From NCBI GenBank assembly GCA_964016885.1, contig OZ024742.1, positions 16,306,001-16,370,000 on the forward strand: DNA of 64,000 nt. The letters are read 5' to 3'. Positions 10,159 through 52,518 of the stretch are shown in pieces (position 1 is the stretch's first letter; the number at the start of each line of letters is the position of its first letter). The notes beneath the pieces were generated by a model. The model ran no database searches and was not told the origin of the DNA. It saw only the letters and a list, made by a program, of their open reading frames with translations. The stretch comes from Eledone cirrhosa. Lineage: Eukaryota. A program made the position numbers and the translations under genes.

Positions 10159-10452
10159 TACAATATTAAATAAATGGAAACTATATTTATAAAACCATAT
10201 CTATTTCATTATATATATTTCGGGGATATCATATTAACAATATGCTATGCCTTCCTCAGACAAAATACAATATAAACAGTTTTATAGATAAATAGATTCG
10301 ACATACCGTTATAACACCGACTTCTATAAAACTGTTTATATTGTATTTTGTCTGAGGAAGGCATAGCATATTGTTAATATGATATCCCCGAAATATATAT
10401 AATGAAATAGATATGGTTTTATAAATATAGTTTCCATTTATTTAATATTGTA
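10159..10452. repeat. Inverted repeat with 130-bp arms, each carrying a hammerhead motif (family B)
   Basis: Arms 10159-10288 and 10323-10452 are reverse complements. Confidence 0.9.
10344..10409 (+). ncRNA. Type I hammerhead ribozyme motif, family B (mirror copy 10202-10267 on minus strand)
   Basis: TATTTTGT CTGAGGA AGGcATAgCATATT gtt AATATGaTATcCCC GAAA TATATA TA ATGAAATA. Confidence 0.75.
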
Positions 10453-10544
10453 TATATATATATATATATATATATATATATATATATATATATATATATA
10501 TATATATATATGCATATATATACTTATATATGTATATGTATATA

Positions 10545-11405
10545 AGAGGTGTGTCAGAAAAGTTCCAGGACTGATGTCACAAAAGATTTATTTCAAACCC
10601 AAACTTCATACTAAGAGTTTTCTTCTTCAGAGTAATCCCCCTGGAGTCTAATACACTTTTCCATCCTTTTCTTCCACGCTTGCATGCACTCCTAGAAGGA
10701 TTCTTCCGGGATCCTGCGCAGTTCCTTCGTCACGACTCTTTTGATGTCATCTACGTCTTCAAAACGGGTCACATCCGGATCGTACTCGAAGATCCACGAC
10801 TCAGCACTGTCCCTAGCAAGTCTGGTTCGGTTTCAAGACGCTCGAGGATGTCCTGGCACACTTGCATGCGTCGACCATTCTGGTCATCGTTCAGCAGTTT
10901 TGGCACCATCTTCGCGCAGACTTTCCGTATGTCCAAATCTTCAGTGAGAATCTTCCAGACGCTGTCCCGATTCATGCCCAGCTCATTTGCCATCAGTCGA
11001 AGAGTCAGCCGACGATCTCTACGCACCATCTGCCTGATGCCCTCAACGTTGACCTCAGGCCTTCCGCTCCTGGGGTCATCTTGCACCACTCAAAAACATG
11101 TGAGCGTGACATCGTCTCATCTCCATACACTTGCTGCAGCAATCCCAGTGCTTCTGGCGGAGCTTTCCCCAACCGTACCAGAAACTTCAAGTTTGTTCGC
11201 TGGTCTGTGCTCATTGCTTGACGACCTGAAACAGAGGACATGTATATAAAATTATGAAGAAAAAGGTTTGATCGCTGCAGAGAGCTAAGATTACAGTTAC
11301 ATAATCCAAGGGGATTACTTTGAAGGAGAAAACTCTTAGTGTGAAGTTTGGGTTTGAAATAAACACTTTGTGACATCAGTCCTGGAACTTTTCTGGCCCA
11401 CCTCG
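10545..11405 (-). mobile_element. Internally deleted mariner (Tc1/mariner) transposon
   Basis: About 100-bp terminal inverted repeats (TIRs; AGAGGTGTGTCAGAAAAGTTCCAGGACTG), TA flanks, and transposase remnants MSTDQRTNLKFLVRLGK..VYGDETMSR and DDPRSGRP..KVCAKMVPKLL. Confidence 0.92.
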
Positions 11406-11457
11406 TATATATATATGTATATATATATATATATATATATATATATATATATATATT

Positions 11458-11610
11458 AATAATAATAATAAATGTGAAGATTAAAATCCAAAGAGGGCTC
11501 GATAAGGATAAATATATATCAAATATATAAGAACCCTAGAGCAAATATTAAAGTAACAAATTAAAGTTTAAGCAATTCTTTGCTTAAACTTTAATCTGTT
11601 ATTTTAATAT
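11458..11610. mobile_element. Tiny PLE terminus of the 6205 family ending in a fold-back palindrome
   Basis: Matches 9104-9178 plus 9423-9465; palindrome TTAAAGTTTAAGCAA ttct TTGCTTAAACTTTAA. Confidence 0.7.
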
Positions 11611-11617
11611 ATATATA

Positions 11618-11940
11618 AGAGGTGTGTCAGAAAAGTTCCAGGACTGATGTCACAAAAGATTTATTTCAAACCCAAACTTCACACTAAAAGTTTTCTCCTT
11701 CAAAGTAATCCCCCTGGAGTATGTAACTGTAATCTTAGCTCTCTGCAGCGATCAAACCTTTTTCTTCATAATTTTATATACATGTCCTCTGTTTCAGGTC
11801 GTCAAGCAATGAGCACAGAGCAGCGAACAAACTTGAAGTTTCTGGTACGGTTGGGGAAAACTCCGTCAGAAGCACTGGGATTGCTGCGGCAAGTGTATGG
11901 AGATGAGACGATGTCACGCTCACGTGTTTTTGAGTGGTGT
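11618..11940 (+). mobile_element. Truncated mariner 5' end (TIR and transposase N-terminus)
   Basis: Same TIR as 10545; MSTEQRTNLKFLVRLGKTPSEALGLLRQVYGDETMSRSRVFEW. Confidence 0.9.
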
Positions 11941-48810: not shown

Positions 48811-49012
48811 AGTGACTTAGGTCCGCTACTGTTTGAAGCGCTCAACCCGTGTGGGAGCTAGATTGATTTTGAGTTTATGTTGGTTGTATACCAATACCTC
48901 AGTATGCAGGCTGGAGCACTCGACGAAGTGCGCAGGTTGGTTTGGTTACTCCGGAGTAGTGTAAAATAAAGTTAAATAAAAGTCAAATGATTAAAATTTA
49001 GCTTCGTTTATT

Positions 49013-49067
49013 ACTGCTATATATATTTCAGTGACAGCCATCTTTGGCTGTGACCTCTTCAGGCAGT
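49013..49067 (-). ncRNA. pLTR type I hammerhead ribozyme, copy 2
   Basis: Reverse complement of 52464-52518; about 200 nt upstream of the ORF ATG. Confidence 0.85.
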
Positions 49068-49804
49068 TTGAATTAGTATGGTATAGACAAGTACATGTGT
49101 TGTTTAGGTGTATGATATTGTCAATACTCTGATATGCCCAGTTCCTTGTTGGGTTGTTAATTCACTGGGGAACTGGAGTCATATGAATTCAAACAAACGA
49201 ATTTCAGTGTCACCGGTCCCCTTCTCCTCTCATTGGTCAGTTATTAGAACATTCCTCATTCTAAGTGTTGTTATTGTTGGAGTTAGCTTAAAAATTGATA
49301 AAATGGTAGAAGGGACAAGGTGTTAAAGGAACAAAATAACAAAATAACAAAAAAAGTGTCAAACTTCCCATTGTTCAGTTCTAAGAGCATTCCTCAGTCA
49401 GAAGTCTATAGAATTCTTTCTGGGGTGAGGCTCCCTGTGTTGTTTTTGCCTGCTATTGTTCAGTACATTTGACCTCCACCATTATTTTGGTACTGTTGTT
49501 GTTGTAGTGGTCAGCTTATATCTTGCTGCTGCTAACAATTTAGAAGTATCCAGTTTGTGTTTTTTCTTCATCTCTCCCGCCACCATCGTAGTGGTGGTGG
49601 TGGTGGTGGGGGTTATTTCATGTATATGAAGAAATATATGGCAATAAATGAAGAAAACAGAAAATAAATAAATAATATAATAAAGTAATTAATATAATTT
49701 GTGTAATTTGAAAATAAATAAATAAATAGAGAATAAAGAATAAAGAGTAAATGAGAGATTGGTGAAAAAGTAATGATAATGTATATGGAGAGCACAGCAC
49801 CAAT

Positions 49805-51256
49805 ATGTTGGAGGGTATGAGGTGGCGTATTCGCCATTTCTTTAAGAACCAGGGGCTCAGCATAGAAATAGACCCAAATAGGAAGGTAGTTAACTTCTTA
49901 GACACCACCCTAAACCTGAACACCGAGCAATACTACCCCTACCACAAGCCCAACGAGAAACTCGTATATGTTAACGCCAAATCAAACCACCCTAGATCCA
50001 TAACCAAGGCAGTGGTGAAGAGTGTCTCGGACAGGATCTCCAGCCTGTCCGCAAGTAAGGAAATATTCAACAACCACGCAGAATATTACAACGCAGCTCT
50101 AAAGAAGGCGGCACATGGAAAAAATATAACATATAGTCCGAAAAGCCGGGAGGTGGATAGCCCAACAGACACCCACAACCGCGTTGCCAGAGGGGGGAGG
50201 GCGAACCCTAACAATACAGGCAGAGCAGAATCAAATAGGCACCATGTACCAGACACCACCACACGGGCGGTGGGGACTAGTGCGCTTGACCACGAGATGG
50301 AGCACAATATGAGTAGCAGTCTCAGGCGTGACGCTAACTACCCCAGGACGGACAACCCCAACCGCAGGACACGTGGGGGGGGGGAACAGGCGACCACCCC
50401 ACGATGGATCTCCCGGGGCGGACAACAACCACCCCACAAATCCGGGCCGCGAAGATAACAAAAAGTATAGAGCCCAAAAGGGAAGCAACAGTGCGGAAAC
50501 CACCAGCAACCCAACAAATCTCCAACAAATCACGAAGCCCCCAACCCACACATATAGGAGAAAACACCGACAAAGCTTTCGTATTCCACCACGAGAAATT
50601 TGGCCCAACACATAGCTAGCATCAACAGAAGTAGGCTTAAAAACCACACACAACCAGAAGATGGCAATACAAACACTCAGCAGAACCATGTGAAAGGAGG
50701 AAAGGGGGAACCCAGAGCCCACCCAAGAAACACAAACAGACCCAAGGACCCCCCACCGAGCATGGGGGAAGACCAACATGTAACACATAATGAGAACCCT
50801 AATATAGGCACGCAGAGGCCGACCACCCTCTGCAACTGCAGAAACCCCGAATCATGCCCCCTTGGTAATGAATGTCTCAAGAAGAACCTAGTGTACGGTT
50901 GTAGGGTTAAAACCCCCAACTCCGAACACCTCTACATAGGAGCCACATCAACGAGCTTTAAGGACCGCTGGTACAACCATCGCAATTCATTCAAGAAGGA
51001 GGCCAAAAGGAAAAGCACAGCTCTCTCCGACCTGATCTGGAAGCTTAAGCTGGACAGGACCCCATACTCTCTGGCCTGGTACATAATCAGGAAAGCACCA
51101 CCCGATAAAGGGGGATCTTGCATATGCAAACTATGCCTGAACGAGACCCTCGAGATACTAAGAGGTGGAAGCGGCCTGATAAACCTCAGAACCGACTTCT
51201 TCGGGACATGCAGACACCTTAGAGCCGGGACCTTTCTCAAGATATATGGACAGTAG
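49805..51256 (+). pseudogene. Inverted duplicate of the RT thumb and GIY-YIG, with a ~130-bp deletion at about 50572
   Basis: ORFs 49805-50458 and 50600-51256 are nearly identical to the minus-strand copy. Confidence 0.9.
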
Positions 51257-52463
51257 CAACACAAGAAGATGTGAACTCCCCTCAAGCTATAGGGACTTCT
51301 ACAGAACATGAAAACACCTCTCGGCCAGACCTCCCTCAAGCTATATGGGCAATAACAACACCTAGGTTGTGAACTCCCCTCAAGCCACAGGGAACAACCC
51401 AGGCAGAGCAGACACCATGATAGCCTAGAGATAGAATCGGACACAGCCATAATAATTTGGCCAACATCTATAACACAAACACTTTTAATTTACCAGATTT
51501 CTGACTTTCAAGTTCCAATCTTAAATCTTGATTTCTCTTTATTAATTTGTTTTTTTGTTTTCTGCCCTCATCACTGTATCACCTTATATTTATTTTAAGT
51601 TGAGATAGATTATAACACAAACACATTGAATATCTCATCTTAACATCTTGTCTCATACCAATCTATCCAACATATTCTGACCTTGAGATTGGTTATAGCA
51701 CACACACACACACACTTTATCCTACATTATTTCTCACCTCTCCATATACATTATCATTACTTTTTCACCAATCTCTCATTTACTCTTTATTCTTTATTCT
51801 CTATTTATTTATTTATTTTCAAATTACACAAATTATATTAATTACTTTATTATATTATTTATTTATTTTCTGTTTTCTTCATTTATTGCCATATATTTCT
51901 TCATATACATGAAAGAAGCCCCCCCCCCCACCACCACCACTACGATGGTGGCGGGAGGGATGAAGAAAAAACACAAACTGGATACTTCTAAATTGTTAGC
52001 AGCAGCAAGATATAAGCTGACCACAACAACAACAACAGTACCAAAATAATGGTGGAGGTCAAATGTACTGAACAATAGCAGGCAAAAACACTACAGGGAG
52101 CCTCACCCCAGAAAGAATTCTATAGACTTCTGACTGAGGAAAGCTCTCAAAACTGAACAATGGGAAGTTTGACACTTTTTTTGTTATTTTGTTATTTTGT
52201 TCCTTTAACACTTTGTCCCTTCTACCATTTTATCAATTTTTAAGTTAACTCCAACAATAACAACACTTAGAATGAGGAATGTTCTAATAACTGACCAATG
52301 AGAGGAGAAGGGGACCTGTGACACTGAAATTCGTTTGTTTGAATTCATATGACTCCAGTTCCCCAGTGAATTAACAACCCAACAAGGAACTGGGCATATC
52401 AGAGTATTGACAATATCATACACCTAAACAACATATGTACTTGTCTATACCATACTAATTCAA

Positions 52464-52518
52464 ACTGCCTGAAGAGGTCACAGCCAAAGATGGCTGTCAC
52501 TGAAATATATATAGCAGT
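52464..52518 (+). ncRNA. pLTR type I hammerhead ribozyme, copy 3
   Basis: ACTGC CTGAAGA GGTcACAGCCA aaga TGGCTGTcACT GAAA TATATA TA GCAGT, then AATAAA. Confidence 0.85.

Follow-up and report, generated by a model that had tools for sequence, protein, structure and literature searches.

The window, the whole 64-kb stretch of Eledone DNA that was analysed, contains nine type I hammerhead motifs, five on the forward strand (cores at 10352, 16069, 25903, 36954 and 52469) and four on the reverse strand (cores at 10259, 44928, 49062 and 63898). Every motif cited in the original prediction lies where it had been placed. In all nine copies, C faces C at the fourth pair of stem II, and stem III is ATATATAT with an AUA cleavage triplet. 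The core (CUGANGA, GAA(A) and three helices) is intact in eight of the nine. An Rfam scan of the window brought no hammerhead family to its gathering score, and no hammerhead model matched positions 52380–52600 even at E≤10. Of 306 Rfam matches, we discarded the 150 listed as microRNA-like or similar chance matches on repeats.

The copies fall into families. The family A motif at 10344..10409 (+) has its core at 10352, C10.4 at 10362, C11.4 at 10386 and a predicted cut after 10401. An identical motif at 10202..10267 (−) is its inverted partner; the two make up a short inverted insertion inside TA repeats, and a bulged hairpin of family A (10131..10153, −) lies in the inverted copy's long tail. 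Family A motifs are also present at 36946..37011 (+; C.C at 36964/36988) and 63841..63906 (−; C.C at 63888/63864). Pair 1 of stem II is A.C in the copies with cores at 10352 and 10259 and U.U at 36954, and the stem is thus not fully covarying, as had been claimed. The family B type motif at 16061..16125 (+) has C10.4 at 16079, C11.4 at 16102 and a predicted cut after 16117. The family B motif at 25895..25955 (+) does carry the C.C that was read there (25913/25932), but its core is mutated to CUAAUGA, and this copy is presumably dead. Two family C motifs occupy the downstream pLTR (44879..44933, −), where the insertion stops approximately 53 nt past the cut site in a TA repeat, and the upstream pLTR (49013..49067, −), with the start codon approximately 210 nt further on. 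The family C motif at 52464..52518 (+) has C10.4 at 52479, C11.4 at 52498 and a predicted cut after 52513; AATAAA follows immediately behind its stem I. The motif at 62645..62681 (−), which had been cited for a similar C.C, is a different hammerhead-like motif and not a member. It has a bulged U, four pairs and a weak stem I, and its C.C just closes an 8-nt loop. It lies downstream of an ORF with a C-terminal GIY-YIG; this ORF has a CX4CxxC linker and is Neptune-like by motif only.

Hammerhead-bearing pLTRs flank an RT-EN ORF in the window (44.9–49.1 kb) and at loci L041, L300 and L301. The ORF in the window (46140..48810, −) is a frameshifted copy of a Penelope-like ORF of the Hydra clade, as defined by its motifs (PMC8557442), with RWK, DKT, YRDD, CxCX5C and, at its C terminus, GIY-YIG; the Pfam match for GIY-YIG is under its cut-off (E 0.001). 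An inverted, 5'-truncated copy of the element (49790..52662, +) stops approximately 147 nt past its own cut site. The motifs RW[KR], [AS]DKT, YRDD and CxCX5C occur in order in L088, L041 and L042, and subsets of them in L297, L298, L301 and L302. Open frames are near 895 aa in young families with intact ORFs, and in most aligned segments the carrier proteins match the protein of one family at approximately 35–55%. Insertion ends reach into TA repeats, as in the (TA)n insertion of the Hydra clade. By these sequence features, the carriers are Hydra-clade Penelope-like elements and not Naiads; the supposed Naiad pLTR at 52464 belongs to an element with a C-terminal endonuclease and DKT.

The insertion ends cluster at approximately +50 and +140 from the cut site. 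Because insertions always run beyond the cut site, the templates must be uncut or re-ligated. A conserved hairpin with a 2-nt UN bulge (48915..48957, −) lies in the 5' UTR of the element between the two end points, and a second copy is found at 52574..52616 (+). A register with a C-G pair and a 2-nt bulge accounts for 25 of 33 distinct inner sequences (other registers for 1, 0 and 0), and an alternative reading of this hairpin, with another C.Y mismatch, was rejected.

Searching the genome with stem II left free, we obtained 49,066 motifs with a TATATA stem III (164 with the reversed-pattern control), and 44,550 of them (91%; five in the control) have C.C at pair 4. The TATATA is not shared by all, as the original prediction had it: another 59,619 motifs have G-centred palindromes (ATATGTAT, ATGCGCAT). 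Among these, 53,237 have C.Y at pair 4; the C.U copies (23,150) represent a sister family. One small family uses C.A. The abundance of the motif exceeds chance by far. A search for C.C stems in which stem III begins other than with T returned 132 matches; most were decayed copies, and one tandem repeat was among them. In metagenomes, the same free pattern gave at least 117 matches, mostly random; among those listed, none had C.C and none had a Hydra ORF match beside the hammerhead pattern. A metagenome locus (L208) is a hammerhead with a TATATA loop and without the mismatch. The contigs of organisms B and C (one or two each) are of low depth and near-identical and were, therefore, not counted as evidence across species.

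The C.C pair, taken to be invariant from the window, is therefore not so genome-wide. Since C.C and C.U are both common and a paired C-G occurs in just 713 of at least 108,685 motifs, the conserved feature is an unpaired C10.4 that faces C, U or rarely A. Of 27 clusters, 25 have C at 10.4, and all have a purine at 10.5 and a pyrimidine at 11.5; position 10.3 is mixed (T12/A9/G6). Pair 4 is paired in none of the 13 multi-member clusters, and pair 3 is paired in all of them, with three pair types. The same was seen in 12 aligned motifs, where pair 4 is always unpaired and pair 3 always paired with seven double changes; the covariation score is 0.571 (0.263 when shuffled), one row being the non-member 62681. 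Stems I–III covary. The cleavage triplet is AUA in 25 of the 27 clusters, with AUC and GUU once each, and the first three pairs of stem I are Y-R-Y/R-Y-R in every cluster. Families B, C, D, E and M pair in an unbulged stem II register, and family A can be read either way. In a quick protein tree made without the named Hydra reference proteins, the families with the mismatch lie in one clade (SH-aLRT 99) and span approximately one amino-acid change per site; for 13 of 15 family pairs, the 300 nt upstream contain no DNA that can be aligned. We consider it very probable that the pair-4 mismatch is under selection at the family level. The proposed conservation of the mismatch is supported, with C10.4 and not C.C as its invariant part.

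Stem III is a covarying 8-nt palindrome (ATATATAT, ATATGTAT, ATGCGCAT and others). It had been described as a single A-U pair, but the monomer may also form a 2-bp stem with an AUAU loop. In the folding model, closing stem III inside the monomer is unfavourable for every one of 11 representatives, at a cost of 1.6–4.5 kcal/mol. Seven of them favour the double hammerhead over two monomers (by 11.5 in family M and 5.8 in family C) and four do not; each of the 11 has some other predicted dimer fold that lies at least 0.7 kcal/mol below the double hammerhead. On these energies, we predict with good confidence that cleavage would occur only as dimers. The suggested dimerization through the palindrome is supported by the folding energies and by the covariation from ATATATAT to ATGCGCAT; a palindromic stem III with dimer-dependent cleavage is already published for Penelope-like hammerheads (PMC4209133). 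As family M keeps its palindrome as ATGCGCAT, we rejected the explanations that TATATA is conserved as a TATA box or because it copies the (TA)n target. Trans-activation by (UA)n, also proposed, was rejected: in the model, (UA)n RNA binds the loop and displaces stem I, and it is predicted to inhibit rather than activate.

We arrive at a reading in which a dimer-dependent Hydra pLTR hammerhead has a C10.4 mismatch that would keep stem II weak and also serve the element's own protein; the chances of this reading as a whole appear even. A tandem transcript would carry two ribozymes, and these would join into a double hammerhead through the 8-nt palindromes of stem III and an exchange of stem I strands, with cleavage after AUA. 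The 3-bp R.Y helix beneath the mismatch would fold only marginally alone, and cleavage would for that reason wait for the RNA-bound protein. Reverse transcription would begin internally, approximately 50 and 140 nt beyond the cut site, on RNA that is uncut or has been re-ligated. Hammerheads of Penelope-like elements cut poorly alone. According to Frangieh et al. 2024 (PMC11167929), the hammerhead of Poseidon from the anole cleaves in vitro only with its own protein. By analogy with that system, as described there for another clade and a ribozyme without the mismatch, similar protein help is likely here. That C10.4 is conserved because the element's own RT-endonuclease uses it as a handle is plausible, at a little short of an even chance.

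The alternatives concern the reason for which C10.4 stays unpaired. It could contact stem I or the A-rich strand behind, replacing the loop 1–loop 2 interaction and giving faster cleavage without protein. Canonical type I hammerheads with a 4-bp helix II do have their loop 2 immediately above the place of pair 4 (PMC4209133), and the polarity of purines and pyrimidines nearby (10.5, 11.5 and the stem I pairs) is strict in 27 of 27 clusters. However, C.C, C.U and C.A are all in use, stem I varies from 4 to 8 bp, and no conserved Watson–Crick partner, G or other fixed base for C10.4 was found in the 30 nt flanking the ribozyme on each side. A protein contact or a non-canonical role is therefore favoured over a tertiary C-G pair; a tertiary contact of any kind seems rather unlikely. 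We think it unlikely that the mismatch is a plain attenuator, its base unread, that weakens or kinks stem II and prevents an early cut of the template or a long duplex. In the folding model, replacing C.C by C-G adds approximately 6 kcal/mol and raises the probabilities of proximal pairs 2–3 from 0.1–0.8 to 0.86–1.0; this cost of the mismatch fits the weak helix of the main reading and would also suit an attenuator, as would the tolerated U substitutions, the insertions from uncut or re-ligated templates and the U.U known at the base of stem II in other hammerheads (PMC3088659; PMC7229834). Any mismatch anywhere would do for this purpose, yet position 4 and C10.4 are kept in 25 of 27 clusters.

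Functionless inheritance from a single ancestor is highly improbable. All families do belong to one clade, in which copy counts are not independent events, and the mismatch Cs decay faster than the catalytic G8: C11.4 is lost in 1,793 copies (3.9%) and C10.4 in 2,678 (5.7%, a figure raised by CpG decay and false registers), compared with approximately 1.3% for G8 (1,076 matches, of which approximately 55 of 100 listed were true by hand count). This decay also counts against the main reading, as do two further observations. In some inverted pairs (L050, L048), a C-G or C.U change is common to both arms, so copying may still proceed from altered templates, or else conversion acted on the pairs. 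Other families with a like palindrome have C-G at position 4 (for example, L326), so the architecture does not need the mismatch. Against inheritance, the adjacent pairs changed many times on both sides, flanking DNA is mostly unalignable between families, and C-G is fixed in none of the multi-member clusters sampled from the clade.

Extending the protein-handle reading, C10.4 might be the switch by which the Hydra RT-endonuclease activates the ribozyme, with the palindromes as a self/non-self dimer code among co-resident families; ATATATAT and ATGCGCAT are predicted not to cross-pair. We offer this only tentatively. If true, it would, with the bulged hairpin, be the first sequence-level map of RNA signals for a Penelope-like protein. 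The clade amounts to natural mutagenesis over more than 100,000 copies and points to single positions: C10.4, the palindrome and the bulged hairpin. It is also a very large ribozyme set missed by Rfam models, and this matters for how many ribozymes are counted in the genomes of animals.

Among known systems, the minimal hammerheads of Penelope-like elements (Cervera and De la Pena 2014, PMC4209133) share the type I topology, the pLTR position, a palindromic, unstable stem III, the dimer model, a long helix II and AU-rich flanks; the short-stem-III Penelope-like hammerheads of Lunse et al. 2017, as presented in citing reviews, are the same kind of close relative. The consensus of PMC4209133 has a bulged base (between 9 and 10.1) before a G10.1–C11.1 pair, whereas most Eledone families have no bulge, an R.Y pair 1 and a fixed C.Y mismatch at pair 4. 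None of its 56 aligned representatives has C.C at pair 4; in our reading, S. purpuratus 1 has C.A and C. sinensis 2 U.U. Hydra-clade hammerheads (Craig et al. 2021, PMC8557442, File S2) belong to the same clade and share (TA)n targets and a near-palindromic stem III region of 8–10 nt. Neither a C.Y mismatch at pair 4 nor a stem III built as A(YR)3U, like ATATATAT/ATGCGCAT, occurs in any of the 26 listed Hydra rows, and helix II is mostly a short 4-bp one, often opened by U.U. Naiads (PMC8557442) resemble the carriers in (TA)n targets, pLTRs and inverted truncated copies but carry their endonuclease at the N terminus, have DKA and lack a canonical hammerhead, in place of the C-terminal endonuclease, DKT and hammerhead seen here. 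According to PMC11167929, Poseidon of Anolis likewise has a pLTR hammerhead upstream of two internal reverse-transcription starts, which leave short and long insertion ends; it differs in clade, in an ORF start inside the ribozyme and in a tail of 30–40 bp versus approximately 90 nt here, and no stem II mismatch is mentioned in the text consulted. Ribozyme mutants in that system left insertion unaffected, which counts against the main reading. Unlike canonical type I hammerheads, with a 4-bp helix II and a loop 1–loop 2 contact, the Eledone motifs have 3 bp, the mismatch and then a long extension. We found no description of a pair-4 mismatch in the literature, with Lunse et al. 2017 covered through the citing reviews. 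Palindrome-based dimer hammerheads are, thus, already known, and the pair-4 C mismatch appears, from the sequences compared and as far as we found, to be new.

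A script identified nine motifs of the C.C type in the 64-kb window, five on the forward and four on the reverse strand (positions follow the conventional hammerhead numbering). In every one of the nine, C faces C at position 4 of stem II, stem III reads ATATATAT and the cleavage nucleotide is A. The core is broken in the copy at 25903, and three copies lack pairing at stem II pair 1. The four regions cited in the original prediction match its description, and its claim of a fully covarying stem II stood in part: covariation was supported (score 0.571 versus 0.263 shuffled, in an alignment of 12 rows, one of them the non-member 62681, where relatedness inflates the control comparison), but pair 1 did not hold in those three copies. 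Pair 4 was unpaired in all 12 aligned rows, the non-member again included. The site at 62645–62681, read earlier as a similar C.C at pair 5, was rejected as a member owing to its different build, a bulged U and four pairs with the C.C merely closing the loop. An Rfam scan of the window recovered neither the nine motifs nor this site.

Loci hand-picked from the match listings, and thus not random, yielded 145 distinct motifs that fall into 29 clusters. Thirteen clusters have at least two members; among these, stem II pairs 1–7 are paired in 11, 12, 13, 0, 11, 12 and 12 clusters, respectively. The positional table covers 27 clusters; two clusters with one member each and C-G at pair 4 were left out, one (L326) being a different, fully paired type of family and the other, in L319, a short misregistered match. 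With these left out, 10.4 is C in 25/27 clusters, and pair 4 is C.C in 19, C.U in four, C.A in two and U.C in two. The mismatch at pair 4 is very probably under selection. Small families (L318, L327 and others) in which a 4-bp stem II is fully paired, pair 4 being C-G, and which have a C...A loop and ATGCGCAT/ATGCATAT as stem III, are natural comparators. The metagenome locus L208 carries a hammerhead-like motif with ATATATAT as stem III, a bulged U and a completely paired stem II; the palindrome therefore exists elsewhere without the mismatch.

The genome search covered 3.0 Gb; pattern counts are lower bounds, and copies are not independent events. The free-stem-II pattern with a TATATA stem III matched at least 49,066 times (control 164), with C.C in at least 44,550 matches, the 5' C absent in at least 2,678 and the 3' C absent in at least 1,793. 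Sister motifs with different stem III palindromes were seen at fetched loci. Genome-wide, G-centred alternating palindromes gave at least 59,619 further matches (control 819), so TATATA is not shared by all copies, contrary to what had been proposed. Within this set, C.Y (C.C or C.U) occurs in at least 53,237 and C.U in at least 23,150, so that subtraction leaves approximately 30,100 C.C; most of the C.U set belongs to a single family with ATGCGCAT as stem III. Over all palindromes of the class, a paired C-G was found at least 713 times (control 68); among the matches listed, some belong to unrelated short-stem families. The pattern for loss of catalytic G8 gave at least 1,076 matches; of the 100 listed, about 55 were genuine by hand count. 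Each C of pair 4 is lost roughly three to four times as often as G8, and in some inverted pairs both copies have the same change at pair 4. Together with the C.U copies, this contradicts an invariant C.C. The rule is instead an unpaired C10.4 facing a pyrimidine plus an 8-nt A(YR)3U palindrome, with C.C and TATATA as the commonest states.

Dimerisation through the stem III loop, an idea already published, is favoured by modelling. Changes in the palindrome are compensated, and ATATATAT and ATGCGCAT are predicted not to cross-pair (+1.7 versus −3.2 and −10.5 kcal/mol). In computed folding, monomer stem III closure was unfavourable in 11/11 representatives and the double hammerhead was better than two monomers in 7/11, although another dimer fold lay lower in all 11. 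Modelled (UA)n RNA anneals to the loop, opening stem I; as it could not supply the A15.1–U16.1 pair, inhibition would be expected and not the trans-activation once suggested.

The mismatch costs a computed 6 kcal/mol or so, and the three proximal pairs are then only marginally stable, as expected of a plain attenuator; we nevertheless consider this reading improbable. A tertiary contact of C10.4 is slightly less improbable but still doubtful, since no fixed partner base was found nearby. We infer that the mismatch may instead keep the ribozyme dependent on the element's own protein, which may read it. Penelope-like hammerheads with palindromic stem III are known to be active as dimers and slow to cleave (PMC4209133; reviews). 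For anole Poseidon, the text of PMC11167929 describes ribozyme cleavage solely with its own protein, insertion in vitro that does not need the ribozyme, and two internal start sites for reverse transcription.

The window holds a pLTR–ORF–pLTR unit with an inverted truncated copy at 44.8–52.7 kb. Among the motif families, labelled by letter, A, B, E and M lie on ORFs of family C's type (approximately 35–55% identity to C in most aligned segments), and the family D endonuclease is about 70% identical to that of C. The small families F, G, H, I and X could not be tied to any ORF among the loci fetched. The young family C has open frames of about 895 aa. In a quick 59-row RT tree, every linked family falls in one 21-row clade (SH-aLRT 99), which also takes in five database proteins, including one from Argonauta, and two unlinked loci; the endonuclease tree gave a 15-row clade (support 84). 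The RT tree places the C.U family next to A and B, so C.U is probably derived. Two named database hits point to a host that is probably an octopod. Additional decayed Hydra-type endonuclease fragments lie at 7180–7731 (−), 37294–37632 (+) and 57198–57487 (−), with a degenerate hammerhead of the type published for Hydra (ACAATTGT) behind the second.

Insertion ends cluster approximately 50 and 140 nt beyond the cut site; the copied RNA therefore spans it. Families A, B, C, E and M show two fixed 3' ends, at +45–55 and +130–150. A hairpin with a 2-nt bulge (ACUC-C...G-UN-GAGUGCU) occurs at 52574–52616 (+), 48915–48957 (−), 10131–10153 (−) and many other loci. In most of the clade's families it starts 51–74 nt beyond the cut site, immediately 3' of the short end. 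Families C, M and B have a similar hairpin behind the long end as well. The bulged register fits 25 of 33 distinct inner sequences, and the hairpin, more conserved in sequence than stem II, is a candidate protein-binding site. AATAAA lies directly 3' of the cut site, for example at 52519–52524, and within 26 nt of it in 12/27 clusters (shuffled mean 3.0, maximum 9). Cleavage would cut this putative poly(A) signal off from the ORF.

Other hammerhead-like families have a stem II of 45–60 nt (26134–26140, 19731–19737 and 18883–18889 (−); L060, L080, L097), and that of L080/L097 also has C.U at pair 4. Another has a core starting CCGA (U4 to C) with a ACAATTGT-type stem III (2861 (−); L021, L058, L251). 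Translation revealed broken LINE-type elements with AP endonuclease and RT-like frames at 29.6–34.4 kb (−) and 59.3–62.1 kb (+). Transposase fragments at 10769–11973 are, by eye, presumably Mariner-like. A weak tRNA-like Rfam match at 20877–20934 (+) has 29.4 bits, which only just reaches the gathering score.

A C–C mismatch in hammerhead stem II was not found in the literature searched; Lunse et al. 2017, reportedly the main survey of short-stem-III variants, or published figures may show such a variant. For octopus and other cephalopods, our search returned nothing on hammerheads beyond the Craig paper (PMC8557442) and a twister paper. The spacing of insertion ends here, approximately 90 nt, is longer than the 30–40 bp tail in the published accounts consulted. 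The Hydra-clade hammerheads tabulated in File S2 of PMC8557442 show this pair-4 mismatch in 0 of 26 rows, and the representatives given in PMC4209133 have C.C there in 0 of 56, with one C.A and one U.U. The motif is real and very abundant, and is a variant of an already known ribozyme setting.
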